Source: an uncultured Methanosarcinales archaeon
GTDB taxonomy: Archaea > Nanobdellota > Nanobdellia > Woesearchaeales > CAYNLP01
NCBI GenBank assembly: GCA_964398115.1
Contig: CAYNLP010000001.1
Coordinates: 37,590-87,098 of the forward strand
DNA: 49,509 nucleotides
Reading direction: 5' to 3'
Position 1 is the stretch's first letter. The number at the start of each line of letters is the position of its first letter. Of this stretch, positions 4,473 to 36,966 are shown in pieces. The notes beneath the pieces were generated by a model. It saw only the letters and a program-made list of their open reading frames with translations, was not told where the DNA came from and made no database searches. The position numbers and the translations under genes were made by a program.

Positions 4473-4537
4473 ATTAAAGAAAAAGAGAAATAACAAAGTT
4501 TGTTGATAATAATAGTGAAAGTGTGAAGTTGAATGTG

Positions 4538-4603
4538 AAGTTATAAGGGGGGTTTGTAGAGGAGAGTGTGAATGAAACCGACCGCGCCCGCCATTTAACT
4601 TAA
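4538..4603 (+). repeat. 66-nt unit 2 of the paralogous pair
   Basis: See unit 1. The offset is exactly 131 nt. It is preceded by tandem TGTGAAGTT-GAA-TGTGAAGTT (4522-4542). Confidence 0.55.
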
Positions 4604-5046
4604 CTTACAAACAAAATTTAGTCATATTTTGTATTTAGTTGAGGAGGTGAAGCAAAATTACAACGTTTGAAATAGTGCTGATAGGTACAGGCGTTTTTGT
4701 GTTCCTTTTGTGTTTTGCTCTGACTTGGTACTTAGATCCACGTACAAGGATATAGAAAAAAAATGCAGTTAGTCAAAAAATTGACGAACTGGAGAAGTGA
4801 ATACGAGAAGATTAATTAGTAGAAGCGATTGATGTTCGTTCGTTCGGTAACATCTTATATATTACAAACTCAAAATTATAACAAAAATTTTATTAATATA
4901 ATATCTTGTATTAATACTAATACTAATGTAGAGGTCTTAACAACGTTCTTATGTGTACTTTGAACATATTTTATTCTACTACGGACAGGGCTTTGAACAT
5001 TCTCTGCCATAAATTTTATATTCTAACAAAAAACTAAAGCTTTGTG

Positions 5047-5679: not shown

Positions 5680-5726
5680 CAAAAGGAAAGTATTAAAATA
5701 ACTAAATTTCCTAAAAATAAAAGAGG

Positions 5727-5996
5727 ATGGAAAACACACAAAAATTTTTGATAGGAGCCATAGTCCTCCTGTTATTATTGAACATAGCCACTCTTGTATT
5801 CGTCTTAAACAGCACAAACTCGATAACAGGTGCGGCCGTAACCAGCTCTAATTCCTTAACTGAGGGATCGGTAGTTATAGAAGGAAAACTAGCAGAAGAC
5901 AGTGAACTGAATAAATGCTGTGACGTGGGAGAAAAGAAGGGATGTTACGTCACTCAAGGAAGTGGATGTTCCGCATGCAACTCAGTATGTGAGTGA
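5727..5996 (+). CDS. Small membrane-anchored Cys-rich protein
   Basis: N-terminal TM LIGAIVLLLLLNIATLVFVL and C-terminal CCDVGEKKGCYVTQGSGCSACNSVCE. Confidence 0.5.
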   Translation: MENTQKFLIGAIVLLLLLNIATLVFVLNSTNSITGAAVTSSNSLTEGSVVIEGKLAEDSELNKCCDVGEKKGCYVTQGSGCSACNSVCE

Positions 5997-7563: not shown

Positions 7564-7635
7564 ACAAATTTGACAGAAGAAAAAAGTTTTTAATTACCCA
7601 CCACTTTTCAAACCCAAAGAAAGAGGTGGGTTTAT

Positions 7636-14568: not shown

Positions 14569-17500
14569 ATGACGAGAAAAGTAATCCTAGGCTTGATAAC
14601 CATCTTCTTACTAACCATACCTCTCTCATCAGGTCAAGAAGTAACCAATCTCGAACTCACTAAATACGATTCAAAAGTAGAACTTGTAAGCACACAAAAT
14701 TATAGAACCGCAGACATGCACTTCACCTACCAAGGACCCAGCTTCGACGAAGTAACTATCGACACCGGTAACCTCTACGTAGAAGATGACAATCCAGTAA
14801 AAACTATTTCTAGAAACAACTGTGTCAAAGAAAACGACGCTTACCACTGTACACTGACAGATTTAAGAATTCAACCACCCGTCCAAGAGGGAAACACATT
14901 CCAAGGACAGATAAACTTCAGATTCATAGGGGATGAAATCCACGAGGATAGAGTAAACTACAATTTCGAAATTGACAACACACAACCCGTGATTGAAAAC
15001 ATCGGCACACCTGCTTGCGAGGAAGACTGCAACATAGGACCAAACGGCAAGCTAAAAATAAAAATCCAAGATGAAAAAGCAAGTTTCAACAACGGCTACA
15101 TCTTCTACCACGTAAACGAAGGAAGCGCTTACATGGTCGACAGCTGCAACTCAACCACTTGCACCGCGTCGATAAACTACAACTGCCAACAAGGAGAAAA
15201 CGTAAAAGTTGACATTGGAGACTATCAAAACGTTCCAAGCCAAGATGACGCTGGCAACCCAGTAAGATTCAACGAAGGAGAAATCACAGAAACATTCACC
15301 TGCGACAGAACCAAGCCAGAAATTCAAAGCTTCACAGTAACAAGCGAAGGAACACCACAGATAACAGAGAATGAAACGGTGACGATACAAGCGACAGTGA
15401 AAGACAACAGCGCAGTATTGATAAAAGCTAACGCAAAGAGTTTCAACGAAAAAGACAAAGTATTAACAAACAAATGCACACCTAACGGGGAAAGTCAGCA
15501 ATGCACACTAAAGTTCAAAGCAAACAAGTCAGCTTACAGACAAGCCCGCATACAATTCACGTTTGAAGACGAAGCAGGAAACACCGTGTCAACAAAAAAA
15601 CAATTAGAAATACTGGAAGAAGCAACAGGAGACGTAAACAACCTATGGACAGTACGAAACGTCCAAGCCAGCCCAACACAAGTTAATACTAAAACACTTC
15701 AATATTTCGAAAAAAAGGTTTACGCATCCACCGCGTTAATCCCAGAACTGGGAGGTGCAGGAGTAGTACAGCAAAAACTTCAAGGATGTCAAGTTGAAGA
15801 ACCTAACATGAACCTTGAAGCAGAATTGATGAGTACAGGAAAAACATTCCAAGTAAAAACCACTCTCCCCACCAGCCTTTCTCAAACAAAGAAGTCAAAA
15901 ATATTCATAAACTGCACGGTTGAAACACACAGCAAGAGACGGACAAGAGCTGTTTCAAATTCAGAAATTGACAGTTTCAGCTACCAAATAAACCTAGAAG
16001 ACTTTCCAGACAGACCAGAAAAATTACAAGAAGAACTCAAAAACATACAAAGCCAAAACAAGAAGTGGAACGATTATTTTGGAACAGTTCAAAAATGGAC
16101 TAACACCTTCACCACGATTTGCAGAGCAGGACAAAAAATAAAGGGGATAACCGGCTTGTTAGGAGGAGTAGAACAAGCATTTTGCTCCAACCCAGTAACT
16201 GCAGGAGCAGCCCCAAGTTTGAAACCACCAGCGGACGCAACTGGTAAGTCAAGCGATGCATTATGGACAGGTCTAGGCAAGTTTTGCAAGTTCTTAACCT
16301 GCAATACCAAAGTACAAGAAGGATTGGAAGATTGGGTTACAAGCCTCGACTTCGGAAGTGGAGCAAGCGTAGACTCAATAACCTCAAGCCTAGGCTTGCC
16401 CAAAGAAGCGCTTTTCCGACCAGAAAACAGCTTAGTTTGGAGCGCCGCCACTTTATGCCTTCCAGGAATGGTTTCAAACCTACAACGCTACAGGGTCATC
16501 CAATGCGAATATCAGAGGTGCATACAGCAAGACAGCATACAAGCAGGAATTCCAAGCTATGCATGTAGAGAAGTAAAGAGTAGGAGTACATGTCAATTCA
16601 CGACAGGACAAATCAGCAAACTTATACCTCAAAGCTTGATGTTCCAACAAGCAGGAAATCTCGTAAAACAAGCACTATCCAACCCGATAGGCCTTCTTGG
16701 AGCAGGTATAAACACTGTCTTTAGTTGCGCCAGTAAACCAGCATGTAGTGGACACGTTGCATGTACCATAACCGACGCTGTAAGTAAAGTAGGACAGTAT
16801 GTCAGCATGTTCAAAGGCATTAGCAACACTGCAACCTCTATGAAGAATGGCTTTAATTCCGCCCAACAAACCGGACCATGCAAAGCAGTAAAAGAACAAG
16901 GAGATGTTGAACTGTACGACCCTGTCGTAGACTCACAAATATCAGAAAGTGAAAAGTCAAGTTTCAGAAATTGCCAAAACGGGATGTGCTCTAATGGAAA
17001 TATTAGAGTAGGACCAAATGGAAATACTGAACTATTAGCTTATCCAGACGATTCCGGTAACGGTAATCTTCATATAAAGTATGAAGGGAGTTATCGGCGA
17101 ATAGAAAGAACCTCAGAAAGTTTGAACATAGACATGACACAAACAATAGATGAAAATAATATAAAAAGTTCCCAGGCACAAACTATTACAATAGTTAGAA
17201 CCCAGCCAACAGTTACTGTAGGAATGCAAGCAGGATTGGAAACAACTGGATCTGACACTTTTTCCAAGAAACAGATTTTAGAGAAAACAGAGGCTGGAAC
17301 AACTCCTGCAACTGAAAAGGTATTGGCTGATAGAGATGAGTTGCAAGAACAAGCCCAGGAGAACCAGGAGAGAAAGCAACAACAGAGGGAAGATCAAGAA
17401 GAGTCCAATGAAGCAGCTAAACAACACGGTCAAGCGATAGGTCAACTAAACAAGTTAGAAAACGAAGTCGAAAGATGGGCTTCAAACCAAGAAGATTATA

Positions 17501-18297
17501 CTGCAAGCGATGTAGAAGATTTCATGAACGATCTTAAAAGTTACTGTTCAGGACCTGCTTGTAATGCTATACCAAAAGTTGAAGAGGTAAATAATGGAAA
17601 AGTAATCTTTGTCTCAGGCGAATCAATGGAAGCCAGCCAAGCAGTAGATTACGTAACTGACCAGATAAACCAGGCGAGAGACGAAAGAAAAGAAGAATTA
17701 CAAAACTTAATGGAAAAAGAATTAGACGCTTCCGATCACGTCATGGATGCTATAAGAACAGGTATCAGCTTTTCAAGAGTTGGCAACACCGCCGTGGATA
17801 TATTGGATCCGGATTGGGGATTCCTACAAGACTACAAAGAGATAGTGCCTCAAAAGATTGGTCAGATATTCGACGTACCCCAACAAGCAATAGGAAAAGC
17901 TTGCAAACAAAACTTTGACCTACAAACCACAGGAACTCTACCAGGCGGTCCAAGCGTGAACTTCCAGCCAGCAATGCATTTAGAGGCTTATAAGCAAGCT
18001 AGAGAGCCAGGAAGTGAGTATAGCATCACTGCAGTAGTCACGCCACCCGTCAAGGATAACGCGACTTTCAACATAGTAGCAAAAGGAGAGGAAGAAAAAG
18101 TGGTAGTGGAAGACGTCACGGTAACCAACACGTCAGGTAGTTACAGCAGAACCCGAACTAACACGATCAAGTTCAGAAGTGAAAATCAGTATGATAAAGT
18201 GTGCTTCCGATTTGAAAAAATTCCTGAAAACGGTTACGGCGGTATAAGCCTCGAAAACAACGAATTCTGTAACGAGGTAAAAGAGGTGGAAGTATGA
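14569..18297 (+). CDS. Giant secreted Cys-rich surface protein (Ig-like N-terminal repeats, Cys-rich core, Q/E coiled coil, beta-rich C-terminus)
   Basis: Sec signal MTRKVILGLITIFLLTIPLSSGQ. DxTxPxI-type Ig-domain starts (DNTQPVIENIG, DRTKPEIQSF). Very Cys-dense central region (about aa 520-790). Coiled coil ELQEQAQENQERKQQQREDQEE. No recognised family. Confidence 0.8.
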   Translation: MTRKVILGLITIFLLTIPLSSGQEVTNLELTKYDSKVELVSTQNYRTADMHFTYQGPSFDEVTIDTGNLYVEDDNPVKTISRNNCVKENDAYHCTLTDLRIQPPVQEGNTFQGQINFRFIGDEIHEDRVNYNFEIDNTQPVIENIGTPACEEDCNIGPNGKLKIKIQDEKASFNNGYIFYHVNEGSAYMVDSCNSTTCTASINYNCQQGENVKVDIGDYQNVPSQDDAGNPVRFNEGEITETFTCDRTKPEIQSFTVTSEGTPQITENETVTIQATVKDNSAVLIKANAKSFNEKDKVLTNKCTPNGESQQCTLKFKANKSAYRQARIQFTFEDEAGNTVSTKKQLEILEEATGDVNNLWTVRNVQASPTQVNTKTLQYFEKKVYASTALIPELGGAGVVQQKLQGCQVEEPNMNLEAELMSTGKTFQVKTTLPTSLSQTKKSKIFINCTVETHSKRRTRAVSNSEIDSFSYQINLEDFPDRPEKLQEELKNIQSQNKKWNDYFGTVQKWTNTFTTICRAGQKIKGITGLLGGVEQAFCSNPVTAGAAPSLKPPADATGKSSDALWTGLGKFCKFLTCNTKVQEGLEDWVTSLDFGSGASVDSITSSLGLPKEALFRPENSLVWSAATLCLPGMVSNLQRYRVIQCEYQRCIQQDSIQAGIPSYACREVKSRSTCQFTTGQISKLIPQSLMFQQAGNLVKQALSNPIGLLGAGINTVFSCASKPACSGHVACTITDAVSKVGQYVSMFKGISNTATSMKNGFNSAQQTGPCKAVKEQGDVELYDPVVDSQISESEKSSFRNCQNGMCSNGNIRVGPNGNTELLAYPDDSGNGNLHIKYEGSYRRIERTSESLNIDMTQTIDENNIKSSQAQTITIVRTQPTVTVGMQAGLETTGSDTFSKKQILEKTEAGTTPATEKVLADRDELQEQAQENQERKQQQREDQEESNEAAKQHGQAIGQLNKLENEVERWASNQEDYTASDVEDFMNDLKSYCSGPACNAIPKVEEVNNGKVIFVSGESMEASQAVDYVTDQINQARDERKEELQNLMEKELDASDHVMDAIRTGISFSRVGNTAVDILDPDWGFLQDYKEIVPQKIGQIFDVPQQAIGKACKQNFDLQTTGTLPGGPSVNFQPAMHLEAYKQAREPGSEYSITAVVTPPVKDNATFNIVAKGEEEKVVVEDVTVTNTSGSYSRTRTNTIKFRSENQYDKVCFRFEKIPENGYGGISLENNEFCNEVKEVEV

Positions 18298-20408
18298 AGA
18301 AAGGACAATTCACAATAACAGTGATAATAGCCCTGCTGATTCTAGTAGGAGTTGGTGTTTTCATATACTATACTTCTCAACCCACGGAAAATCCAGAGGT
18401 GGAAACTGAGGTGAAGACTCCTGTAGCGAGTTATGTTTCCAGCTGTACACAAGAAGTAGCTAGGCAAGGATTAGAAAGGATTGGCAGACAAGGCGGTTAC
18501 GTCAATTCGTCAAAACACTATTCCTTAGATAGTAATTTACCAACTACAGAAAAGCCATACTTGCAAGTGGCGCCAGATTCTGAAAGTATAATTCCATACT
18601 GGCATTACCTTCAATCAAGTAACGAGTGTTCAGAAAATTGTAGGTTTGAAAGTGAAGCACCTACGTTGCAGGGATCACAAGATAGTATTCAAGCACAATT
18701 AGAAAGGTATGTTGATAGAAATGTTGAGAATTGTATCGCAAACTTTTCTAGCATTCAAGAAAGCAAGGTTGAAGTCTTAGGTCAGCCACGTTCAAGAGTT
18801 GAATTTCTTGATAACAACGTACAAGTTAAATTGAATTATCCGTTAAGGGTTAAAACAGATACAGAGAACGTTACTTTAGAAGACCACACTGCAGAGTTGG
18901 ATGTCGCGTTTAAGAGGTTGTATAAGACAGCGATTGGTTTGAACAAGTTTAACACAAACGTTGACTTTTTCGAAAATTCTGTTTCAAAAAGCGTGCTTAA
19001 CTCACACTCTATGGGGTTAGATCCTGAAATACCTCCAATGCAAGGTGGTGTCGAGTTTGACAGTGCAGGTCCTTGGTACAAGCCAGATGTTAGAGAGAAA
19101 TTAAAGACTTATTTGAATGATGAAATGAGTAAGGTTAGCGTGGAAGGAACAGTTAACAGCCAAATCGTCCTGACAAACAATACAGTTAGGAATGCTCAAA
19201 ATGACGATCTCTACCTTCCAGGGGAAGGAACTCCTTATAGTTATCAAAAAATTTCTGACCTTGCTATAAGTTTTGAGTACTTGCCGTGGTGGGATTTGTA
19301 TCTTGACATCACTGGTGAGGGAAGCAGTGGACAATTCATAAGACCCCAGCCCATTTGGCCTCCTAGCCTTGGAGGAATGCTACTCCCGTTGCGTATAGAG
19401 AATTTCAATTATGATTTGAGTTATCCAGTAATGGCTACGGTTAGTCAACCAAATGCTTTCGGTGGAGACGGTTATGAACTCCGTTTTGCGGTAGAGTCTA
19501 ACTTAAGAAATAACGATCCTTTGAACTCCAGTTTTTCTTCTACGTTTTTAGAATTGCAAAGCACGGGAACTTATTTGTGTGATCAGCAGCAGAGAAATAG
19601 TGGCGATATTAATATCACGGTAGAGAACGAGGTTACGGGTGAAAGGTTGGAAGGAGCAAGCATACAGTATAGTTGTGGTTCTGAAAGTTGTTATATTGAT
19701 GAGACTAACAGTACTGGTTTCGTTTCAGAAAATTTACCGGTTTGTGGTAATGGATTGTTGACGGTTAACAAGCCAGGTTTTGGAAGTGAAGAAGTCAGCC
19801 TTACCACCCAGGCTGGTCGTTCAGAAAGTTTGACGGTGGAGTTAATGCCTGAGTTTGAAGTTGAGGCGACGGTTATGAAGAAAATGCTTGGTGAGGTTGA
19901 ACCTGAAAGTTATCAGGAAGAGAGTACTTGGAACTTTGTTGGTACTTTAAGAGAGTTAGAACGGGATGAAACCGCTATAATCGTTTTGAGAAAGGTTGAT
20001 AGTGACTACACCCGGGTTGTTGAGTATAATGGTTCTGGCGTTCCTGCAACGGTTTCACTTAGTCCTGGAACTTATGAATTAGAAGGTCACTTGACTAAGA
20101 ATGTTTCTGACAATCCAGTTGTCATTTCTGAAAAAGAAGTTTGTGAAGGAGTTCCTGGATTTGAAGAGTGTGTTGTTTTGAATAGCACTGAAATGAACAA
20201 GACTGTCTTAAGTGGAGGTTTGGATTTGAGTGGTGAAAACAGTGTGGACATTTCCGCTTCTAACCTTCAAAGCGGTAGTATTAGGTTTTACGTCGCAGGA
20301 GTAAATGTTAATGATATTGACAGGCATTTGGACATGACAGTTTTCGGGAAGTATCCTGAAATAACGGGTGATAACTCGGGAGAGTTTAAGCCTGAATTTA
20401 CTGGTTAG
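18294..20408 (+). CDS. Large surface protein with class III (type IV pilin-like) signal peptide
   Basis: N-terminus MKKGQFTITVIIALLILVGVGVFIYY matches the archaeal prepilin KGQ-plus-hydrophobic pattern. The ATG overlaps the upstream stop (ATGA) and follows GAGGTGG. There is a CarboxypepD_reg-like beta-sandwich segment (GDINITVENEVTGERLEGASIQ...LLTVNKPGF). Confidence 0.8.
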   Translation: MKKGQFTITVIIALLILVGVGVFIYYTSQPTENPEVETEVKTPVASYVSSCTQEVARQGLERIGRQGGYVNSSKHYSLDSNLPTTEKPYLQVAPDSESIIPYWHYLQSSNECSENCRFESEAPTLQGSQDSIQAQLERYVDRNVENCIANFSSIQESKVEVLGQPRSRVEFLDNNVQVKLNYPLRVKTDTENVTLEDHTAELDVAFKRLYKTAIGLNKFNTNVDFFENSVSKSVLNSHSMGLDPEIPPMQGGVEFDSAGPWYKPDVREKLKTYLNDEMSKVSVEGTVNSQIVLTNNTVRNAQNDDLYLPGEGTPYSYQKISDLAISFEYLPWWDLYLDITGEGSSGQFIRPQPIWPPSLGGMLLPLRIENFNYDLSYPVMATVSQPNAFGGDGYELRFAVESNLRNNDPLNSSFSSTFLELQSTGTYLCDQQQRNSGDINITVENEVTGERLEGASIQYSCGSESCYIDETNSTGFVSENLPVCGNGLLTVNKPGFGSEEVSLTTQAGRSESLTVELMPEFEVEATVMKKMLGEVEPESYQEESTWNFVGTLRELERDETAIIVLRKVDSDYTRVVEYNGSGVPATVSLSPGTYELEGHLTKNVSDNPVVISEKEVCEGVPGFEECVVLNSTEMNKTVLSGGLDLSGENSVDISASNLQSGSIRFYVAGVNVNDIDRHLDMTVFGKYPEITGDNSGEFKPEFTG

Positions 20409-29495: not shown

Positions 29496-30035
29496 ATGTT
29501 GGGGGTGCAAAAGGTGTTTTTTGATAGTAATATCTCTGAAAAGTTAGAGAAGATGGAGGCTTCTATAAGGTCTAGTTTTGAAGCCGTTAAGAAGGAAATG
29601 GATAATCATCTGGATAGCATTAATAAGAATACTGATGAAATTCAGCACGTTTATGATTACCTTTCTGAGTTAGAAGCTAAGATGAATAAGTTATCAGAGC
29701 GTATGGAAAAAGTTGAGATGATGAATAATCCGTCTCACGCTGAACCATTGAGTTGTAACGTTAAACTTAACAGGAGAGAGCAAGAAGTTTTCATGGTTCT
29801 CTACGCCTCTGATGATAAAGTAACTACGGATGAAATTGCTAGAAAGCTTGGTTTCAGTGATGAGATGGTGATTAATTACTTGTATAACTTGATAGCTAAA
29901 GGCGTGCCTATTAGAAAAGAATGTATAGGTAACAGGATGGTTCTTTCTTTGAATAAGAAGTTTGAGAATTTACAGGCTAAGAAGAACATTTTAGATATTG
30001 AAGAGTCTGTAGCAAAAGAAGTTATGAAAGCATGA
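29496..30035 (+). CDS. Coiled-coil protein with C-terminal winged-helix DNA-binding domain
   Basis: N-terminal heptad-rich region. C-terminal REQEVFMVLYASDDKVTTDEIARKLGFSDEMVINYLYNLIAKGVPI. GTG 29514 after GGGGG is an alternative start. Confidence 0.6.
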   Translation: MLGVQKVFFDSNISEKLEKMEASIRSSFEAVKKEMDNHLDSINKNTDEIQHVYDYLSELEAKMNKLSERMEKVEMMNNPSHAEPLSCNVKLNRREQEVFMVLYASDDKVTTDEIARKLGFSDEMVINYLYNLIAKGVPIRKECIGNRMVLSLNKKFENLQAKKNILDIEESVAKEVMKA

Positions 30036-30302
30036 TTATTTCATCTTTTTAGTTAACTTCTTTATTCGATCTAGGTATTTGCCAGCTTTAGCGTGGTTTC
30101 CTCTTTTAACTTGTGAATGATACTTTCTAAGATATTTTTCAATCTTTTTAGCAGTTTTATATCCAACATCATCTCTTGAAAGGTCATTAACCTTCCTAAA
30201 CTTATCAAGTATTGCTTCAGAAAGTTCCATTAATTCTTCTCTTTCGTACAGTTCTATTAGTTGTGTCAATTGTGCTATTGTTTTTGCGGTTTTGTTTGCC
30301 AT
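30036..30302 (-). CDS. Small basic helical protein
   Basis: 88-aa K/R-rich ORF. No motif recognised. Confidence 0.45.
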   Translation of the reverse strand: MANKTAKTIAQLTQLIELYEREELMELSEAILDKFRKVNDLSRDDVGYKTAKKIEKYLRKYHSQVKRGNHAKAGKYLDRIKKLTKKMK

Positions 30303-30348
30303 AAGGGTACTTTTTCTAATAGTTAATATAAAAAAGTTGTTTTTCTAA

Positions 30349-30400
30349 AACTTTTAATCAATAACTATATATAATATTTCTATAAATTATAATAAAAAAC
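30349..30400 (+). repeat. Left copy of a 52-bp imperfect direct repeat bracketing the recombinase cassette
   Basis: AACTTTTAATCAAT (14/14), then 10 nt (6/10), then AATATTTCTA (10/10), then 18 nt (13/18). That is 43/52 identical to 32215-32266 by hand alignment, in the same register. Confidence 0.6.
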
Positions 30401-30527
30401 AGTAAATTCCTAACACAAATAATGACTATAAATAGGAAAACCAATACATAGAATAACCAATAAAAAAACACTAAAACATATATTATAACCAATAAATTTA
30501 TAAACCAAAAACATAATAAAAAATCAC

Positions 30528-30893
30528 ATGACACCAAACAAAAAAGAAAACTCAATATTGAAATTAAAAGGATTCCTTTCATTCCTCATACTACACGAAT
30601 TAAGAGGAGAAAAGCTCTGCGGCGAAGACTTAGCATTAAGAATAGGACGAAGAAAAGGATCCGTATTAACCCCTGGAACAATTTATCCAGCATTAAAAAA
30701 ACTACACAAAAAAGGCCTTGTCAAATACAGGAAAGATGGAAGAAAAAAATACTATAAATTAACCGAAAAAGGAGAAGACGAGTTAGAGTCATCTTATAAA
30801 AAATTCAGTAATTATTTCTATGGATTAAAAAATAAGATTAAGAGAGAGTGGTATGAGCCATTACCAGAGCACGAATCTTTTTATAATAATTAA
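30528..30893 (+). CDS. PadR-family winged-helix transcriptional regulator
   Basis: FLILHELRGEKLCGEDLALRI...LTPGTIYPALKKLHKKGLVKYRKDGRKKYYKLTEKGEDEL is a canonical PadR N-domain. Confidence 0.85.
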   Translation: MTPNKKENSILKLKGFLSFLILHELRGEKLCGEDLALRIGRRKGSVLTPGTIYPALKKLHKKGLVKYRKDGRKKYYKLTEKGEDELESSYKKFSNYFYGLKNKIKREWYEPLPEHESFYNN

Positions 30894-31006
30894 TCTATGA
30901 TAAAAAACTTTTATTAAAATAAATATAGTTTTTGATTAAAACTTATAATCGTAAAATAACAATGTTTATCGAAAACGTTAAATAAAGAGAAAGGAAAAAG
31001 ATAAAC

Positions 31007-31261
31007 ATGGTAAAAAATGAAGTAAAACTTTGGATCTCCACATTTTTATTCTTAGTAGCGATAGCCACAATAATAGCAATAAAACCTATGCCCAACAAAG
31101 CAGAAGTTGTAGAGCAAAACATAGCAGGACAAGCCACATGTATGGAAAGAGATAGCGGCTGGATATGTTGCTATGGACACGCTACAGATACAGCAATAAA
31201 GTTTGACGGCAACAAAGCACATATTAGACATTCACCATCAAAAGTTCAAGAAGTTTGCTAA
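31007..31261 (+). CDS. Small membrane-anchored Cys-containing protein
   Basis: TM LWISTFLFLVAIATIIAI followed by CMERDSGWICCYGH. The SD is weak. Confidence 0.4.
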   Translation: MVKNEVKLWISTFLFLVAIATIIAIKPMPNKAEVVEQNIAGQATCMERDSGWICCYGHATDTAIKFDGNKAHIRHSPSKVQEVC

Positions 31262-31342
31262 ACATCGTCAACTTTCACCAATTTCATCTATAAGGCCGGA
31301 CTTATTCAACAAAAGAAGCACTTTCTAATCAACTAAACAATA

Positions 31343-31423
31343 AACGTAATACTTTATACAAAGTATAACGTTAAACGTAACAAGATATAGCAAAAACGTA
31401 ACATTTTTAAGAAGTATTACGTT
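31343..31423. promoter_or_regulatory. Array of five ACGTAA/TTACGT-core motifs forming two imperfect palindromes, ending 10 nt before the recombinase ATG
   Basis: AACGTAATACTTTATACAAAGTATAACGTT (31343-31372) pairs at 13 of 15 positions. AACGTAACA occurs at 31374 and 31395, and an inverted TTACGTT at 31417-31423. Confidence 0.55.
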
Positions 31424-31433
31424 ATATAGTGAT

Positions 31434-32063
31434 ATGAGCAAAGAAAACAAGACACCAAAGAAAAAAGGACACGATCGCAGCCAATTTCACCTAACCGAAG
31501 ACCAAATAAAACAATTAATTAAAACAACAGAAAAACTGCGAGATAAATTAATAATTAAATTACTAGCATACTGTGGCCTAAGAAGATTCGAAGTAGCAAA
31601 AATAAAACTAGAAGATATCGACTTAGAAGATCGCAAGATCAGAATCGAAGGCAAGAAAAATATTGAAAGACTGGCAACAATATTCGCAGATAGCCTTTTA
31701 GAAGATCTAAAAATGTATATCCGCTATGTGCTGGATGGAAGAGAAAAAGGGTACCTCTTCCCGGCAAAATCCATCCTCAATGAATCAGGACACATTTCAG
31801 AAACACAAATAAATAGAATAGTCGCAAAAGCAGGAGATAGAGCTGGTTTGAAAAATCCCGTCCCAGAACTAAAAAACATTAACCCGCACCTTCTAAGACA
31901 TAGTTGTGCCCGAATATTGAAAGATAGAGGTCTTAGTTTAGAAGTAGTTCAAAAGGTATTAGGCCACCTCTCATATCAAACAACAATGGATTTGTATGGT
32001 ACAAAAAGTATTTCTGAAATGGATGAAGAGCTTCAAGAAAAAATGGGAGATGCTTTTGAGTAA
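31434..32063 (+). CDS. Tyrosine recombinase/integrase, short form (catalytic domain only)
   Basis: Arg I in LAYCGLRRFEV, HxxR in HLLRHSCA, His in VLGHLS and catalytic Tyr in TTMDLYG. It is only 209 aa and Arg I falls near residue 50, so there is no normal N-terminal core-binding domain. Confidence 0.85.
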   Translation: MSKENKTPKKKGHDRSQFHLTEDQIKQLIKTTEKLRDKLIIKLLAYCGLRRFEVAKIKLEDIDLEDRKIRIEGKKNIERLATIFADSLLEDLKMYIRYVLDGREKGYLFPAKSILNESGHISETQINRIVAKAGDRAGLKNPVPELKNINPHLLRHSCARILKDRGLSLEVVQKVLGHLSYQTTMDLYGTKSISEMDEELQEKMGDAFE

Positions 32064-32214
32064 TCCCTCTAATAGCAAGAATTTATGATTAAATATTTTT
32101 GTCATAATTTGAAATTTTTGTAAAATCCAGCAAAAAGTTTTGTTTAAAACTTGTAATCAAAAACAAAATCATTAATTAATTGTTTGCCCAATATATAGGA
32201 TATACAATAAATAT

Positions 32215-32266
32215 AACTTTTAATCAATTATAATAAATAATATTTCTAAAATCTTTAATAAAAAAT
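32215..32266 (+). repeat. Right copy of the 52-bp imperfect direct repeat
   Basis: See 30349-30400. It ends 122 nt before ATG 32388. Confidence 0.6.
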
Positions 32267-32387
32267 TAAATTTTTCAAAAAATGGTATTAGACATTATTT
32301 CTTTTCAATATAAACAAAAAATAGTTTTTCTAAATACGCGCGTTAGAAAGATTTAAATAAGAATTCAGGGGAATAAAACACTAGAAT

Positions 32388-32981
32388 ATGAAGGTTTTAC
32401 AATCGAACAGTAGATTAAAAATATTTATTCTATCTGTTATATCTACATTGTTCATCCCAAGTGTAGCAGGTGAAACAGGTCTCGATCCATTAAACAATGT
32501 TGTACGTATGATTGCTGAATTCTTCACAATACCTGCCTTAAACAATGAAGAAGTACAACTTGGCATCATAAAATTCGGAATATTCCTAATAGTTTTCGCC
32601 ATAGCCCATCTTGCACTCAGGAACGTTTGGGGAAGCGGATATGGCGGAGGAGCTAATCAAGCAAGAGCAGCCAAAGTCATAGCTTTTGTTGTAGCATTTA
32701 TTGGAAGCTTCTTCATGCCCAACGGATGGGCATTAGCACTAGGAGGAGTAATTGCAGGCCTCGTTATATTCTTACTCGTAGGTGGAGGAGCATACTATGC
32801 CACTATGAAGCTTAAAGATGACTGGCTACAAAATCTCTTCGGACTTATAATAATACTGCTCTTAATCTGGCTGACATCCACTTTTAGAGGCTACTTACAC
32901 GGAGCTAATGTTGGAGTAGGAACTGCACCAGTCTTCGTATTTGGAGCTAGGAGGTTGTTCAAATGGCTCTCTCACCAATAA
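32388..32981 (+). CDS. Polytopic membrane protein with Sec-type signal, Gly-rich loops, unknown family
   Basis: Signal IFILSVISTLFIPSVAGE followed by four or five hydrophobic helices. First gene of a four-gene operon. Confidence 0.65.
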   Translation: MKVLQSNSRLKIFILSVISTLFIPSVAGETGLDPLNNVVRMIAEFFTIPALNNEEVQLGIIKFGIFLIVFAIAHLALRNVWGSGYGGGANQARAAKVIAFVVAFIGSFFMPNGWALALGGVIAGLVIFLLVGGGAYYATMKLKDDWLQNLFGLIIILLLIWLTSTFRGYLHGANVGVGTAPVFVFGARRLFKWLSHQ

Positions 32982-35107
32982 TGGTAGAAGTTATGACAAT
33001 CGTAGTCGACTGGATGCTCTTACTCCTACTTATCCTTTTCATAGTCAAAATAGTGCAAATGATTGGAGCATTTCGAGGAAGCGGAGGAGAAAGTTGGTTT
33101 AGCTCAGAAGAGGAATCAGAGCCTACATTTGAAGAAGAACCCACAATTGAGGAAGAACCTACATTTGAAGAAGAACATCCTGAACCGGAAGAAGCTGAAG
33201 GTGCTCCAGGCACGGAAGACGGCCCTCTTGATTGGGATAACCCTGGCACAATACAAGTAGAGGTACAGAATGAAAACGGCGATCCCGTCCAAGGAGCTGA
33301 AGTAGTTATACAACCGGCAAATGTTGAAAGGAACTTCTTTGGCGGAAGAAAGTCAGGATCGGAAGCAAGAACAGGAAGAACAAACGAAGAAGGATTATTC
33401 CCCCCAGAACCTATGCAGATAGGAAGCGGAAGAGTACTCGTATCAGTAAACAAGCCCGGATTTTTCAGCAGAAAAAAGTTTTTTACTGGAAAAGAAGGAG
33501 AAGATTACATTTCTGAAAAAACTTGGGTAGTGAATCCCGACGATCACACTCATGTTCCCTTAGTTCTAGCTAGAAGCGAAGAAGGAGAAGAAACAGGAGT
33601 TATAAAAGGAAGAGTAATTGACGCGTCACAATACAAAGAAAGCGTAGCTATCAAAGATCAGGCAGAAAAGATCGTAAGAGAGGAAAGATACGGAAAGATA
33701 GGTGTGGAAGGTGCAAAAGTGATGCCTGTAGATTTCGATAATAACCCTATATATGACTCTGTCATGACAGGAAAAGACGGATCCTTCACTATCGAAGTTC
33801 CTCTAAAGAGAAAGTTTAACGTTTACGCAAAGAAAGGCGAAAAAGATGGTTGGCATATTGCAGGAACCTCAACTAATGACTTACTTTTAACACCTAACCA
33901 AAAATCAAGAGAAGATATAGTAATCCCCATAAAAGAAGAATCTCCAGTACAGGAACCAGATGAAGAAAGCAGAACACCTGAAAAGAGAGAAAAAGAAGAA
34001 CCAAAAGAGAAAGAAGGAAGAGAAGAGGTAACAAGAAGATCTAAAGAAGCTAAGGGGTACAAGGTTGAACCCAAAGTTGTGCCTAACAACGAACCAGCCC
34101 AAACAATAAACAAAAAAGAAAGACTGGCCCCTGTGGGAAGAAAACCCGGGAAAGAAAGTATGATAAAAGAAGGTTCTTCCGCAACCAATATAGAGTTAAG
34201 CTTTAGATTTCAAGGATTGAAAGAAAATAATCAACCTGTCAGGTCCACACCACTCCTGTTCTTTTGGGACTTAAACGAAGAAAGAGACGCAACAAATGAA
34301 TTCATAGAAGACCCAAACGAAGTAATAGCAAATATTGGAGGAACTGACATAAAATACAGACAAACCTCGAAGAACAAAACAATACCCTCTAAGGATAACG
34401 GAGAAAAAGGCGGAGGGCAAAAGATAGTTCCACGATACAATATACAATCAGATATAAGACCCGACAAATACCGTCTATACTGTGTAATGCTACAACCCAC
34501 AAATCCAAACAACAACCAATATTTAAAACCAATAGCTAGTCACAAAGTCCCGAAAGAACTAGTTAATCTGCTAAGATCAGCAGAAAGAGGAGATAACAAA
34601 GCCAAGAAGATTCTTAACAAATTTGTATACGACTTTGATTACATAGACATTGTATACAAATACGGTCAAGGAAAAGACAAACCCACCATGGAAGATACAC
34701 AAGAATCCATCAACTACTTCTTCCAAGATGAATATCCAGAAGATAAAGACTGGAGATTTAACCCTAATGAAAGCCTCGGATGGAAATCATCTGAATATGA
34801 GAAAAGACTAAACCTGATAGTGAAAAATATGGCCACAGCCTACAACGGCGTAGGAGCACAAGTAAAGGCCGAAGAAAGACGTAATCTAGAAAAAGCATAC
34901 CAATTCATGAAAAACTACCAGAAATGGCAAGAATACAGCAAAGAAGGAAATCAAGAGAAGAAAAAAGAAATAGAAGAAAAGATACTACAACAAGCCGATA
35001 AAGATAGCATGACCGAAATAACAGGAAAATATCTAAACAAATGGGTGAAATATTTCGCAAAGAAACTAAAGAGAAGGTTCAAAGAAAAGCAATCATACAA
35101 CGAATAA
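32963..35107 (+). CDS. Large bitopic protein: N-terminal TM, acidic EPTFEE repeats, CarboxypepD_reg-like beta-sandwiches, K/E-rich linker, unknown C-terminal domain
   Basis: AGGAGG lies 8 nt before the ATG, and the gene overlaps the upstream gene by 19 nt. Beta-sandwich-like segments GTIQVEVQNENGDPVQGAEVVIQPA and GAKVMPVD...TGKDGSFTIEVP. Charged linker EKREKEEPKEKEGREE. Confidence 0.75.
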   Translation: MALSPIMVEVMTIVVDWMLLLLLILFIVKIVQMIGAFRGSGGESWFSSEEESEPTFEEEPTIEEEPTFEEEHPEPEEAEGAPGTEDGPLDWDNPGTIQVEVQNENGDPVQGAEVVIQPANVERNFFGGRKSGSEARTGRTNEEGLFPPEPMQIGSGRVLVSVNKPGFFSRKKFFTGKEGEDYISEKTWVVNPDDHTHVPLVLARSEEGEETGVIKGRVIDASQYKESVAIKDQAEKIVREERYGKIGVEGAKVMPVDFDNNPIYDSVMTGKDGSFTIEVPLKRKFNVYAKKGEKDGWHIAGTSTNDLLLTPNQKSREDIVIPIKEESPVQEPDEESRTPEKREKEEPKEKEGREEVTRRSKEAKGYKVEPKVVPNNEPAQTINKKERLAPVGRKPGKESMIKEGSSATNIELSFRFQGLKENNQPVRSTPLLFFWDLNEERDATNEFIEDPNEVIANIGGTDIKYRQTSKNKTIPSKDNGEKGGGQKIVPRYNIQSDIRPDKYRLYCVMLQPTNPNNNQYLKPIASHKVPKELVNLLRSAERGDNKAKKILNKFVYDFDYIDIVYKYGQGKDKPTMEDTQESINYFFQDEYPEDKDWRFNPNESLGWKSSEYEKRLNLIVKNMATAYNGVGAQVKAEERRNLEKAYQFMKNYQKWQEYSKEGNQEKKKEIEEKILQQADKDSMTEITGKYLNKWVKYFAKKLKRRFKEKQSYNE
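33122..33175 (+). repeat. Three tandem 18-nt coding repeats (EPTFEE / EPTIEE / EPTFEE)
   Basis: cctacatttgaagaagaa at 33122 and 33158 is identical. The middle copy is cccacaattgaggaagaa. Confidence 0.8.
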
Positions 35108-35120
35108 AGGTGGCAAAGTC

Positions 35121-36056
35121 ATGTTTAAATTAAAAAGTTGGAGAGGCGAAAAAGGACTCATAAAACACGCCAGAAGAGAAGCTAGAAGACTTATCAGAAA
35201 AGATCTAGACCGAATACAAGACACTTGGAAAGAACTAGAACAAGCAACCGAAAATAGAGACGCTGACAAAGTACAAGAAGCCGCTTTCAAACTTATAAAC
35301 AAAGACTACCCCAAATTTTTTGACAGGATAGAAAGCATATTCCAAGAAGGACTAATTAAAGAAGAACATAAACACATCACAAACATTTACAACATAACAG
35401 TCATCTTAGAAGAGTTGAAAGAACAAGCTCAAAATAAAGGGTTACAATCCATAGTTCAACTTATAGAAGAAGACAAAAACAAATTAAAAGAAATAAGGAA
35501 AGAAATAAGAAGAGTCCTACAAAAGAGAGCGTTAAACAGTTTTGAAAGATTAAGTAATGAACAAAAGCCTTTCACAGCATCAGGTGAAGAAGAAGATGAA
35601 ATAGTGCTAGCAAGAAACATACGAGGATTCGTCAAAAAACTGGTAGGTCCTGAAAAAGACATAGCCAAAAGAGAAGATCGAGCAGAAGACATAATAAGAA
35701 AAATCGACATTTCAAGTGTAGAAAGCGAAGAAGACATAAAAGAAGTTAAGAAAAAACTGGAGAAAGCCAAGAAAGACCTTGATAAACTTCATAAATCAAT
35801 CGTGAAAGAACGCAAACTTGAAAACTGGTTGATATTTTATATAACAATGGACTTATACGAATACATAGGTGGCAGCGACTTACCTAAGCTTATTCAAAAA
35901 ATTTATCAACTTCACGAAGAAAAAGGATTTCCTAAACCCCATATAGAAAACGTGCGACAGGAATACGCTAAAGTAATACAACAAGTCAAACAATTAGCAG
36001 GAGAAATGGAAAAACTCACACGAGACGCATTAGGCGATCTCAAAAGACACACTTAA
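35121..36056 (+). CDS. Cytoplasmic coiled-coil protein, unknown family
   Basis: AAGGTGG SD, 13-nt gap from the upstream gene, and 311 aa rich in K/E heptads. No TM helix and no enzymatic motif. Confidence 0.7.
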   Translation: MFKLKSWRGEKGLIKHARREARRLIRKDLDRIQDTWKELEQATENRDADKVQEAAFKLINKDYPKFFDRIESIFQEGLIKEEHKHITNIYNITVILEELKEQAQNKGLQSIVQLIEEDKNKLKEIRKEIRRVLQKRALNSFERLSNEQKPFTASGEEEDEIVLARNIRGFVKKLVGPEKDIAKREDRAEDIIRKIDISSVESEEDIKEVKKKLEKAKKDLDKLHKSIVKERKLENWLIFYITMDLYEYIGGSDLPKLIQKIYQLHEEKGFPKPHIENVRQEYAKVIQQVKQLAGEMEKLTRDALGDLKRHT

Positions 36057-36071
36057 AGGAGGTAACTAATT

Positions 36072-36482
36072 ATGAACAAGAAAGGAGTTGTTTTCACAAG
36101 ACCAAGGGACACGTTAAGCTTTTTCATAGGACTTTTCGTAACCGCCGTAGGACTGATACCCTTACTAAATAGTTGGGGATTGATAGGCTTCAACATACCA
36201 TTGATATCGAACTTAAGCGCCAAAGTCTTGATATGGGCAGTTGCTATCTTCGGAGCATATGTCCTTATAGACGGCTTGATAGAACCACCTATGCACAGCC
36301 TTCACTGGATCCTGATAATCGCTGGTGGCGTCATGATGATAACCGGTTTGCTTCCTATCTTAAACAGCATGGGAGTGATAAGCTTTAGCCTTTCATTCCT
36401 AGAAGGCAACACCATGATTTACCGCATCTTGCTAAGCATTGAAGGCATAAGCCTCGTAATCGGCGGATTAACCATGCACTAA
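36072..36482 (+). CDS. Four-TM membrane protein with internal two-fold duplication
   Basis: AAGGAGGT SD. The halves share GLIPLLNSWGLIGFNIP versus GLLPILNSMGVISFSLS. Confidence 0.7.
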   Translation: MNKKGVVFTRPRDTLSFFIGLFVTAVGLIPLLNSWGLIGFNIPLISNLSAKVLIWAVAIFGAYVLIDGLIEPPMHSLHWILIIAGGVMMITGLLPILNSMGVISFSLSFLEGNTMIYRILLSIEGISLVIGGLTMH

Positions 36483-36506
36483 GTCGGAATTTTTCCGACA
36501 TTTTTT
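36483..36506 (+). terminator. Hairpin plus T-tract immediately after the operon stop codon
   Basis: GTCGGAA-ttt-TTCCGAC is a perfect 7-bp stem (36483-36499), followed by A then TTTTTT (36501-36506). Confidence 0.55.
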
Positions 36507-36546
36507 CCTTTACCTTTTTTACTTCTAACATTCTAAAGAAAAATCT

Positions 36547-36966
36547 ATGATTAAGAAATACGCTACACTAACCACACTCTTATTAACAGCGTGTGGCGGT
36601 GAAGAAGTAAGTCTTCCAAGTCAGTTAAGAAATCCCGACATATTCCTCTCTGGAAAAAGAGGTAGTCACTGGTACGTCTTAGCAGAAGATGAAGACAACG
36701 GATGTTCACTCGCTTACAGTTTGAAAAAAGAAGACGAAAGAAACGTCAGAATTTACAGCGGTCGCGAATGCACCAATATAACACTATACGCTAACGTGAA
36801 GTCAAAACAAAAACTAGACTATATAGTTAAATTTGGCAAAGTCAAAGGCGAAGTCGTAGAAAAATTAAACCTAAACTCTTTAAGACTTTCAGATGAACAA
36901 GCCAGTTCGATAAGGAAACAATACACTAGATGGTCCAGTCTAATCAAAGAAAAACACATCCCATAA
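36547..36966 (+). CDS. Small secreted protein with lipobox
   Basis: Signal MIKKYATLTTLLLTACGG. Confidence 0.55.
   Translation: MIKKYATLTTLLLTACGGEEVSLPSQLRNPDIFLSGKRGSHWYVLAEDEDNGCSLAYSLKKEDERNVRIYSGRECTNITLYANVKSKQKLDYIVKFGKVKGEVVEKLNLNSLRLSDEQASSIRKQYTRWSSLIKEKHIP

Follow-up and report, generated by a model that had tools for sequence, protein, structure and literature searches.

Does a tyrosine recombinase gene that stands between direct repeats necessarily mark an integrated element? The question is raised by a 1.9-kb locus in the 49.5-kb stretch of Woesearchaeote DNA that we analysed as a whole (the window), in which two 52-bp segments enclose a short recombinase gene and two further genes, and which an earlier note had read as a minimal integrative or excisable cassette. 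We find that these repeats are built from a 21-bp motif, conserved in many DPANN archaea as a flanking element of Xer-type recombinase genes; the locus is therefore probably a resident, chromosomal Xer-like recombinase locus in which the motif arrays serve as accessory protein-binding sites, and not a mobile cassette. The features discussed below are collected in Table 1.

Table 1. Features of the recombinase locus and its neighbours, in window coordinates
Feature	Position	Strand	Basis and remarks
HTH179, 179 aa, coiled-coil and C-terminal winged-helix	29496..30035	+	Pfam HTH_11/TrmB-like matches
88-aa ORF, between HTH179 stop and left P1 array	30036..30302	-	lineage-specific
Left P1 array (left repeat of the earlier note)	30343..30400	+	PWM 24.8 bits; internal duplication, family D2
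PadR winged-helix regulator, 121 aa	30528..30893	+	PF03551, 44.7 bits (cut-off 27)
Internal P1 copies, between PadR and 84-aa genes	30900..30952		PWM
84-aa protein, one N-terminal hydrophobic helix, Cys-containing tail	31007..31261	+	no Pfam family
Site 1, dif-like 11-6-11 palindrome, 28 bp	31344..31371	+	ACGTAATACTT-TATACA-AAGTATAACGT
Isolated ACGTAACA half-site between sites 1 and 2	31374..31381	+	conserved GTAAC block, 47-species alignment
Site 2, second palindrome	31396..31422	+	ACGTAACA-N11-TATTACGT; PWM 18.7 bits
XerA-like tyrosine recombinase, catalytic domain only, 209 aa	31434..32063	+	PF00589, 113 bits
Right P1 arrays	32085..32266		PWM; adjoin recombinase stop codon, the position typical of about 45 species
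Downstream operon	32388..36966	+	197-aa membrane protein, 714-aa protein, 311-, 136- and 139-aa proteins

The repeats and their core motif

The two segments, 30349-30400 and 32215-32266, do align in register at 43 of 52 positions, and they have in common a perfect 14-mer (AACTTTTAATCAAT) and a perfect 10-mer (AATATTTCTA); a repeat search lengthens the pair slightly, to 30346-30399 and 32212-32265 (83% over 54 nt). Their significance was assessed with dinucleotide-preserving shuffles, the statistic being the highest ungapped score of one intergenic region against the other: the observed score of 27 was reached by 0 of 500 shuffles, which gave a mean of 11.5 (sd 1.4) and a maximum of 18. The repeats are real, as the earlier note had claimed, but they are not a unique pair, for their core motif recurs across the locus.

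This core, P1, is a 19-21-bp near-palindrome (TTCTAAAAC-TTTTAATCAA or TTGATTAAAA-C-TTTTAATCAA) that reads as a 7-7-7 arm-spacer-arm layout and is found in both orientations, in arrays of 2-6 copies. The 1.9-kb locus holds at least seven copies and the rest of the window one weak match. Each 52-bp repeat consists of two P1 copies about 34 bp apart (repeat family D2): the left array joins a strong copy at 30343-30361 to a degenerate one around 30377-30395, and the right repeat is made up of 32209-32227 (18.7 bits) and 32244-32262 (16.7 bits). Nearer the recombinase stop codon lie a minus-strand copy at 32085-32103 (17.1 bits) and a dyad at 32140-32160 (starts 32140/32142; 12.5/19.5 bits). The internal copies, a weak one at 30900-30918 (PWM 11.5) and a dyad at 30932-30952 (starts 30932/30934; TTGATTAAAACTTATAATCG; 18.7 and 15.0 on the two strands), form with the left copy an inverted repeat, I1.

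P1 across species and loci

In about 45 species of Woesearchaeota and Nanoarchaeota (all genomes compared are metagenome-assembled), clusters of P1 stand on either side of the orthologous recombinase gene. Matches of at least 15 bits fall only at -900 to -200 and +500 to +800 relative to that gene, with essentially none elsewhere within +/-5 kb, and P1 matches total 311 against 48 in a shuffled control. The motif also lies beside full-length XerA genes that are paired with HTH179, the winged-helix gene upstream of our locus. Eighty loci sampled independently through HTH179 carry 74 P1 sites in the first 250 bp past its stop codon and practically none (about 0) across the 5 kb upstream of it; of the 38 loci whose sequence reaches far enough, 28 have a tyrosine recombinase adjoining the P1 array, and a second P1 cluster often lies beyond the far side of the recombinase. 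The module is inverted relative to its flanking genes in several lineages. P1 itself is unchanged between the mini-recombinase loci and the full-length XerA loci, and since it stays constant across recombinase families, we argue that a protein other than the recombinase reads it.

Another account would make P1 a locus-specific transcription signal, either an unusual BRE/TATA-like promoter or a bidirectional terminator or insulator, with no dedicated accessory protein. P1 contains AAAAC-TTTTAAT, which on reading resembles an archaeal BRE plus TATA; in two loci (L096 and L097) a P1 dyad precedes the start codon of xerA by about 18-38 bp; the arrays stand at the 3' ends of HTH179 and of the recombinase, with T4 runs on both strands; and in L022 and its relatives the stop codon of a cargo gene falls inside a P1 copy. 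However, a canonical BRE/TATA of its own precedes the ATG of every gene in the window locus, at a distance of about 27-30 bp, and general promoters or terminators are not expected to be confined to one locus, as P1 is within the 49.5 kb and within +/-5 kb at more than 100 loci. Arrays of P1 copies in both orientations also speak against this account, which we regard as improbable.

The 209-aa recombinase

The Phage_integrase domain spans residues 20-188 of the protein, and the catalytic residues of the earlier note (R...HxxR...H...Y), together with a lysine, are all present: R50, K74, H152-x-x-R155, H178 and Y188 show no variation among 15 orthologues. The missing core-binding domain is likewise borne out. 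The N-terminal domain of Pyrococcus abyssi XerA comprises residues 1-103 (PMC3646895); our protein aligns only from XerA residue 104 onward (residues 104-274), so the core-binding domain is absent, and the ORF cannot be lengthened upstream. The archaeal XerA profile NF040815 (XerA_Arch) gives 131.4 bits over positions 85-258 of 263, below its curated cut-off of 220 bits, and the best PDB matches are 4A8E and 5HXY. The protein thus appears, from these alignments, to be a XerA-derived enzyme that lost its core-binding domain. An AlphaFold2 model built on a shallow alignment had a mean pLDDT of 55, too poor for a fold search.

Two places where a detached core-binding domain might lie were considered and rejected. 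The 88-aa minus-strand ORF has a sub-threshold match to Phage_int_SAM_5 (19.5 bits against a cut-off of 22.3), and no homologue in about 45 related loci, and it does not resemble the N-terminal domains of full-length XerA neighbours. The ORFs of about 100 aa found upstream of the recombinase elsewhere are unrelated cargo (Cys-rich, ferritin-like, PadR or toxin-antitoxin-like).

The family is large, with more than 370 homologues of 201-234 aa that share 73-81% identity, and occurs in at least 50 species-level genomes at about one copy per genome. Identity across species is 72-85% although third-codon (synonymous) sites are saturated, and divergence correlates with that of the neighbouring HTH179 (Mantel rho 0.34, p=0.008). 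No close relatives were found on viral contigs: matches in IMG/VR are partial and reach at most 45% identity.

Palindromes upstream of the recombinase

Directly upstream of the gene lie two palindromes (sites 1 and 2). About 47 species have kept site 1, with the consensus ACGTAACACTT-TATACA-AAATGTTACGT, and its PWM score of 32.8 bits is the sole match in the 49.5 kb, the next best reaching 9.8. Site 2 overlaps the BRE/TATA of the recombinase gene and includes a block, ACGTAACATTTAAATAATCTGTTAC, that is also conserved in about 47 species. A second family of mini-recombinases has its palindromes in the same tandem layout, 51-52 bp apart. The palindromes upstream of related recombinases co-vary with the recombinase family, being built on ACGTAACA, ACGCAACA or GTCGCACAA/GTGCGTATAA; for 9 of 29 full-length recombinases next to HTH179, a GC-containing 11-6-11 palindrome lies upstream (for example GGTGCGTATAA-GGTACA-TTATACGCATT), against 2.6% of shuffles. 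We take site 1 to be the putative core recombination site of the mini-recombinase and site 2 a putative autoregulatory operator; site 1 resembles a TATA-containing operator and could have a purely regulatory role.

Two related possibilities were set aside. The 52-bp repeats are not extra dif-like sites, as no match to the site 1 PWM of 8 bits or more falls on them. IMEX-like elements carrying site 1 were sought on viral contigs, and the 95 matches to its 15-mer core all lack the second arm, which marks them as chance matches. A dif site is expected once per chromosome, at the replication terminus; the cumulative GC skew of the window peaks near 36 kb, and tests for a terminus over the +/-5-kb flanks of 27 loci gave p=0.25 for GC skew and p=0.08 for strand bias.

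Without its core-binding domain, the enzyme would seem to need a partner to clamp the DNA. The mini-recombinase might accordingly act as a second subunit or as a paralogue alongside a full-length XerA whose gene lies elsewhere, in the manner of XerC/XerD, or it might have a separate task at site 1. Two loci point this way: in L011 a bona fide XerA lies 1.3 kb from the mini-recombinase, and in L093 recombinases of 168 and 291 aa stand in tandem with a palindrome between them, so the mini-enzyme is not necessarily the dimer resolvase of the cell. Against a partner stand the 44 of 45 family-1 loci that hold no other recombinase within +/-5 kb (the window holds none either), the complete catalytic set, and the fact that the enzyme has palindromes of its own with two identical outer arms, which imply a homodimer on each site. 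We consider either role quite unlikely.

Genes between and beside the arrays

The three enclosed ORFs described by the earlier note (PadR, the 84-aa protein and the recombinase) exist, and only the recombinase is a constant member of the locus. PadR lies near the recombinase in about four other species only (L001-4, L008, L036 and L042), which counts against the proposal that it supplies DNA targeting and led us to reject it as the P1-binding factor. The 84-aa protein has no homologue in related loci, and it does not resemble the Cys-rich proteins of 98-104 aa that fill this slot in other loci. In most species the recombinase-adjacent slot holds 0-2 genes; the PadR, 84-aa and 88-aa genes appear, by this comparison, to be lineage-specific insertions in variable spacers between the P1 arrays and the core. 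An Rfam scan of the window found only a tRNA-Pro.

The downstream operon, whose 714-aa product has a CarboxypepD_reg-like domain, is a neighbour and not part of the conserved module: homologues of its 197-aa protein follow the recombinase only in L001-4 and L059. The idea that the cassette acts as a switch for this operon found no support, and the operon has, as read from its upstream region, a BRE/TATA of its own some 30 bp ahead of the ATG.

On the cassette reading, PadR, the membrane protein and the integrase would have integrated recently, the 52-bp repeats would be attL and attR, and excision would fuse 30348 to 32267. Statistically real direct repeats do bracket a tyrosine recombinase, and GC dips to 27-35% over 30-33 kb. 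The low GC, however, is simply that of AT-rich intergenic DNA, and the supposed att sites are a multi-copy motif, conserved in more than 100 loci of many species. The recombinase, far from being a newcomer, is an ancient and nearly single-copy chromosomal gene under strong purifying selection that co-diverges with its neighbour, lacks close relatives on viral contigs, and has its own, different and highly conserved palindrome directly upstream; neither PadR nor the 84-aa gene is a conserved partner of it. Related genomes yielded no empty site: in the closest relative (L008/L059) and in L001 the recombinase sits, as in the window, between HTH179 and the 197-aa gene. Recent integration of a mobile cassette is largely refuted by these observations and we hold it to be very improbable. 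What survives of the earlier proposal, besides the repeats themselves and the catalytic-domain-only enzyme, is that the repeats belong functionally with the recombinase.

P1 as a possible crossover site

The repeats might also belong with the recombinase as its substrate. P1 arrays would then be recombination sites, and the dif-like site, gene and cargo that they bracket would be inverted or excised by the enzyme or by a partner, the module being domesticated and the ACGTAACA palindromes only operators. Inversion of the module would be directly explained if P1 were a recombination site, and it is seen against a shared flank in L017 and L027 compared with L022, L034 and L011, and relative to HTH179 in L020 and L114, while full-length XerA genes adjoin HTH179 in both orientations. 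Unrelated cargo genes lie between P1 copies, and a 98-104-aa gene bounded by P1 copies shows presence/absence polymorphism. The 7-7-7 layout of P1 would suit a crossover site, and invertases of the FimB/FimE type are similarly small, their profile NF007370 aligning over nearly its full length (query residues 14-185, profile positions 7-174 of 200), at 53 bits against a cut-off of 221.

The products expected of such recombination are nevertheless not what the loci hold. The "empty" state in L034 keeps both P1 copies and 57 bp of unrelated filler in place of a single hybrid site; insertions downstream of the gene have no P1 on their far side; and at three HTH179 genes without a neighbouring recombinase P1 is absent, with no single-copy scar. 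Four strain variants with identical recombinases (L001-L004, 21 contigs) all have the same orientation (4/4), so that both orientations were not seen in one population, whereas orientation differs between species, and for the inversions only one flank is traceable. Lastly, P1 does not vary from one recombinase family to the next, although the palindromes of those families have diverged. We judge crossover at P1 unlikely and continue to favour P1 as an accessory binding site.

HTH179

If P1 is read by another protein, HTH179 is a candidate P1-binding or accessory factor. The family is uncharacterised, has no Pfam family of its own and is confined to Woesearchaeota and Nanoarchaeota; besides the matches in Table 1, it has a weak NCBIfam match to Lrs14/Sta1-like proteins and a PDB match to an Lrs14-like protein (6CMV, E=0.0017). 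In 25 species an orthologue precedes the recombinase gene; HTH179 has 27-46% identity across species, as against 72-85% for the recombinase. The full-length recombinases next to HTH179 score 240-278 bits, above the NCBIfam XerA equivalog cut-off of 220. Against this candidate stand three HTH179 genes that have neither a recombinase nor P1 beside them, and about 20 recombinase loci that carry P1 without HTH179 within 5 kb; HTH179 would accordingly have to act in trans.

Comparison with known systems

The nearest relatives are the archaeal XerA/dif systems of Pyrococcus abyssi, Thermoplasma acidophilum and Sulfolobus. The likeness lies in the best profile and structure matches (NF040815, 4A8E, 5HXY), in the full RKHRHY catalytic set, and in site 1, since archaeal dif is likewise a 28-bp 11-6-11 imperfect palindrome (PMC2958812); the dif region is moreover flanked by inverted repeats in Thermococcales and M. 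stadtmanae (PMC2958812). Activity of P. abyssi XerA was studied with the purified protein and half-site suicide substrates (PMC3646895). The present system differs in its recombinase (209 aa versus about 280, without the N-terminal core-binding domain), in the position of site 1 directly upstream of the gene (in Thermococcales dif lies away from xerA), in the second palindrome over the promoter, in the arrays of a distinct 21-bp motif that bracket the gene, and in that at least one genome encodes a bona fide XerA besides the mini-enzyme.

Bacteria offer partial parallels. In XerS/difSL of streptococci and XerH/difH of Helicobacter and Campylobacter, a single recombinase gene adjoins its cognate dif-like site, as here, and XerS and XerH are among the NCBIfam and PDB matches; those enzymes, however, are two-domain proteins of about 355-360 aa under FtsK control, whereas ours has the catalytic domain alone, belongs to an archaeon that lacks FtsK and is encoded between motif arrays. 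FimB and FimE of E. coli are also about 200 aa and essentially catalytic domain only, and depend on accessory DNA-binding and bending proteins (IHF, Lrp) near their recombination sites, but the best homology of the mini-recombinase is to XerA and not to Fim. In the plasmid Xer sites cer and psi (ArgR/PepA, ArcA/PepA) and in Tn3-type res, arrays of accessory sites beside the core crossover site impose control or topological selectivity. With these the putative role of P1 has only the accessory-array concept in common: there is no sequence or protein homology, and P1 arrays lie on both sides, spanning the recombinase gene.

Integrated archaeal elements with integrases of the SSV and pNOB8 types also place a tyrosine recombinase between direct repeats. 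In our locus, by contrast, the repeats are multi-copy conserved motifs and not a duplicated target, the gene is unsplit, ancient and about single-copy, and there are neither element genes nor empty sites. Integrons (IntI, attI and attC, including archaeal ones) resemble it in having a recombinase beside a slot of unrelated small genes with imperfect palindromes between them, and TIGR02249 is a secondary match of the mini-recombinase (65.6 bits against a cut-off of 265). The defining features of an integron-like cassette platform are nonetheless missing: the 209-aa enzyme lacks the IntI-specific additional domain, the 21-bp P1 as read does not fit the RYYYAAC...GTTRRRY cores of attC, the cargo genes carry their own BRE/TATA promoters, and the indels lack the clean form expected of P1 x P1 exchange. 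We rejected that comparison as an explanation.

Discussion

The conserved core of the locus consists of sites 1 and 2 and the 209-aa recombinase, bracketed by P1 arrays. In the explanation that we favour, the mini-recombinase would bind the ACGTAACA-type palindromes, acting in Xer-like fashion to recombine sister or dimeric chromosomes at site 1 and repressing its own promoter through site 2. The P1 arrays would be bound by a dimeric DNA-binding protein, most likely the often adjacent HTH179, and would not be crossover sites; the resulting nucleoprotein structure on either side of the recombinase/dif unit may control its expression or the recombination itself. Both the Xer function of the locus and the identity of the P1-binding protein are what we infer from conservation and gene arrangement.

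As a matter of annotation, the locus is a warning that a recombinase between direct repeats is not always an integrated element. It also documents a large family of XerA derivatives, extremely conserved, that have the catalytic domain alone. By the usual definition a "simple" tyrosine recombinase has a core-binding and a catalytic domain (PMC8138268), and a natural enzyme without the clamp raises the question of how sites are recognised and synapsed; such an enzyme could also be a compact tool.

How Xer recombination is restricted to chromosome dimers in archaea without FtsK is an acknowledged open question (PMC2958812; PMC8371274). The three-part association described here (a XerA-type recombinase with a gene-adjacent dif-like site, two-sided P1 arrays, and HTH179) recurs at more than 100 loci across the Woesearchaeota and Nanoarchaeota. 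A bolder proposal, which we put forward tentatively and ourselves find doubtful, is that P1 arrays and HTH179 form a previously unrecognised accessory nucleoprotein system that brackets dif/xer in DPANN archaea and controls Xer recombination, as a stand-in for FtsK or for cer/psi-type factors, or even as a Tus/RTP-like fork trap, and that this system let one lineage dispense with the core-binding domain. The locus is in any case a concrete, testable candidate for the control of Xer recombination in FtsK-less archaea.

The P1 repeats and the genes between them

The 52-bp repeats that an earlier note had placed around a three-gene cassette are real: segments 30349-30400 and 32215-32266 are identical in register at 43 of 52 positions, with the perfect 14-mer and 10-mer described, and the two intergenic regions align without gaps at a best score of 27, compared with a mean of 11.5 and a maximum of 18 in 500 dinucleotide-preserving shuffles. 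All three enclosed reading frames also exist (PadR, the 84-aa protein and the 209-aa tyrosine recombinase; see table). The catalytic residues of the recombinase are invariant across its orthologues, and the proposed lack of a core-binding domain is confirmed, since P. abyssi XerA aligns only from residue 104 and its N-terminal domain comprises residues 1-103 (PMC3646895).

The repeats are not, as had been supposed, a unique pair; the motif is multi-copy in the locus and each repeat itself consists of two copies spaced about 34 bp apart. This motif, P1, is a 19-21-bp near-palindrome of the form TTCTAAAAC-TTTTAATCAA or TTGATTAAAA-C-TTTTAATCAA, and its core, at up to one mismatch, is absent from the rest of the 49.5-kb window. 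In about 45 species, P1 matches of at least 15 bits are confined to -900 to -200 and +500 to +800 relative to the recombinase gene, that is, just 5' of the conserved block carrying site 1 (a dif-like palindrome) and just past the recombinase stop codon, with almost none elsewhere within 5 kb on either side (311 matches in total vs 48 in the shuffled control). A second recurring motif lies alongside the P1 arrays, one copy overlapping the PadR TATA box; it is also found in distant loci from other metagenome-assembled genomes (L001:4130-4415 and 6795-6834, and past HTH179 in L083 and L085).

Features of the recombinase locus and its surroundings (window positions)
Feature	Position	Strand	Description
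MCM	450-2573		housekeeping gene
1242-aa ORF	14569-18297	+	no Pfam family at E<=1e-3
704-aa ORF	18294-20408	+	no Pfam family at E<=1e-3
HTH179	29496-30035	+	179-aa coiled-coil and C-terminal winged-helix protein
88-aa ORF	30036-30302	-	exactly between HTH179 stop codon and left P1 array
P1 core AAAACTTNTAATC	30347, 30938, 32146, 32213		four copies with at most one mismatch
P1 by position weight matrix	30343, 30900, 30932/30934, 32085, 32140/32142, 32209, 32244		several are dyads
Second motif ATATAGGATA(A/T)CCAATAAAT	30443-30464, 30475-30496, 32190-32211		alongside P1 arrays
PadR ORF			PF03551, 44.7 bits
84-aa protein			one hydrophobic helix; no family
Hairpin and T-run	~31289-31306		GC-rich short hairpin, then T-run (e.g. 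AAAGGCCGGCTTTTTTT)
Site 1	31344-31371		11-6-11 palindrome; consensus ACGTAACACTT-TATACA-AAATGTTACGT
Lone GTAAC half-site			in conserved upstream block
Site 2	31396-31422		ACGTAACA-N11-TGTTACGT; overlaps recombinase TATA box
209-aa recombinase	31434-32063	+	Phage_integrase domain, 113 bits
714-aa protein	32963-35107		18-nt tandem repeats, especially 33118-33176, encoding an acidic EEEPTFEEE-type stretch; CarboxypepD_reg-like domain

An ancient recombinase with an adjacent dif-like site

The best family match of the recombinase is archaeal XerA (NF040815, 131 bits), the score falling under the cut-off of 220 because the alignment covers the catalytic half only; the top PDB matches are 4A8E and 5HXY. 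There are more than 370 homologues, and the best 120 range from 201 to 234 aa at 73-81% identity; a scan of species-representative genomes gave 52 loci of full length, with essentially a single copy in each genome. At conserved residues, third-codon positions are 35-53% identical, where chance alone would give about 35%, so the proteins diverged long ago and under very strong purifying selection. HTH179 is only 27-46% identical over the same species, and its divergence tracks that of the recombinase (Mantel rho 0.34, p=0.008). IMG/VR holds no close relative of the recombinase, and the literature searched contains no description of a catalytic-domain-only Xer.

About 95 bp immediately 5' of the recombinase gene are kept in about 47 species, as a block made up of site 1, a lone GTAAC half-site and site 2. 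Site 1 has the 11-6-11 layout of archaeal dif (PMC2958812). At 32.8 bits it has no second copy in the window, where the runner-up scores 9.8, and neither 52-bp repeat matches it. From its position, site 2 would allow the recombinase to regulate its own expression. Just 5' of site 1, at the same position in most related loci, are the hairpin and T-run and a conserved CCCTTCGACG block; these could serve to terminate the cargo gene or extend the flank of the dif-like site.

The window is a segment of archaeal chromosome of about 38% GC with MCM, MetRS, TyrRS, tRNA-Pro and other housekeeping genes, and going by the names of its homologues it belongs to the DPANN archaea, among the Woesearchaeota/Nanoarchaeota. 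The cumulative GC skew has its maximum near 36 kb, and the genes, predominantly on the plus strand up to about 37 kb (5-6 kb away from the dif-like site), are predominantly on the minus strand beyond it. Both are compatible with a replication terminus; a terminus test on the 5-kb flanks of 27 loci was not significant. The operon in L001-L004 that is the counterpart of that encoding the 714-aa downstream protein is strain-variable, with proteins of 861, 967 and 1092 aa, and about seven copies of a 44-bp tandem repeat lie ahead of it (L001:7539-7948).

A variable slot beside the recombinase

The slot from the upstream P1 copies to site 1 contains no gene in about 20 species and elsewhere holds unrelated small genes: PadR (three species), Cys-rich proteins of 98-104 aa (five), ferritin-like proteins (two) and toxin-antitoxin-like genes. 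In the closest relative, L008/L059, the order is HTH179-PadR-recombinase-197-aa gene and the 88-aa and 84-aa genes are missing; neither of these two has a homologue among the related loci (about 45). PadR and the 84-aa gene are variable fillers of this slot; with the recombinase a conserved resident gene and P1 bracketing recombinases across species, the mobile-cassette model is unsupported. The 88-aa ORF gave a weak, sub-threshold match to an integrase SAM-like N-terminal domain; it does not resemble the corresponding domains of XerA proteins encoded nearby.

That P1 is itself the crossover site seems to us improbable. The module is reversed relative to a shared flank in L017/L027 and, in L020 and L114, relative to HTH179, and P1 bounds the presence or absence of a cargo gene, all as crossover at P1 would have it; yet the "empty" L034 retains the two P1 copies with 57 bp of filler, downstream indels have no P1 boundary on their far side, HTH179-only loci bear no P1 scar, and strain variants with identical recombinase share one common orientation.

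Several metagenome-assembled contigs end inside the recombinase gene or at most a few hundred bp away (L008/L059, L060/L061, L062), and the JABHRR assembly has one full copy and a partial second; a mixture of strains, repeats or a structurally heterogeneous locus might account for this.

HTH179, a candidate reader of P1

HTH179 belongs to an uncharacterised family that is restricted to this clade and whose winged helix weakly matches the Lrs14 type. It is the commonest neighbour of the recombinase (25 species), always upstream and with its 3' end abutting the P1 array. In an independent sample of 80 metagenome loci collected through HTH179 alone, 74 P1 sites lie within 250 bp past the HTH179 stop codon vs about 0 over 5 kb upstream; of the 38 loci whose sequence extends far enough, 28 have a tyrosine recombinase adjoining the array, often with a second P1 cluster on its far side. 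These recombinases belong to the same mini family, to a second mini family of 215-219 aa and about 36% identity, or to full-length enzymes (268-292 aa, usually convergent with HTH179) that reach XerA equivalog level (245-278 bits).

Upstream palindromes differ between recombinase families. Those of the second mini family, in tandem, carry ACGCAACA in place of ACGTAACA, and for nine of 29 full-length enzymes the 300 bp upstream include a GC-containing 11-6-11 palindrome (vs 2.6% of shuffles), for example ACGTCGTACAA-GGTACA-TTGTGCGACGT and GGTGCGTATAA-GGTACA-TTATACGCATT. That these palindromes change with the recombinase is what would be expected of its own binding sites. P1 does not change between mini and full-length enzymes, which suggests that it has a different reader. 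In L144, a gene of the second mini family is bracketed by another repeat, AAACTCTCACTTTTTAG, in inverted and direct copies (5991-6033/6976-7018 and 7017-7045); here the bracketing principle is retained while the motif differs.

The association has its limits. P1 is absent from three HTH179 loci with no neighbouring recombinase, about 20 recombinase loci have P1 and no HTH179 within 5 kb, and five loci have HTH179 and P1 and no tyrosine recombinase. One of these five has a serine recombinase in the slot: in L119 (5641-6399), a 252-aa enzyme of resolvase/invertase type takes the usual tyrosine-recombinase position after the HTH179-P1 array, about 640-1398 bp past the HTH179 stop. Two loci could represent a two-recombinase arrangement: in L011 the mini-enzyme lies 1.3 kb from a bona fide full-length XerA (244 bits; 6771-7589, minus strand), and in L093 a 168-aa short recombinase is in tandem with a 291-aa XerA (4314-4820 and 4944-5819), with a perfect 11-6-11 palindrome between them. 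The mini-enzyme thus need not be the sole resolvase.

Neither an HTH179-like partner protein nor the P1 motif is described in the literature searched. Taken together, the locus is that of an ancient resident recombinase that derives from XerA and has a dif-like site beside its gene. We infer an Xer-like function for it; the P1 arrays most likely bind an accessory protein, and HTH179, the best candidate, would presumably be their reader.
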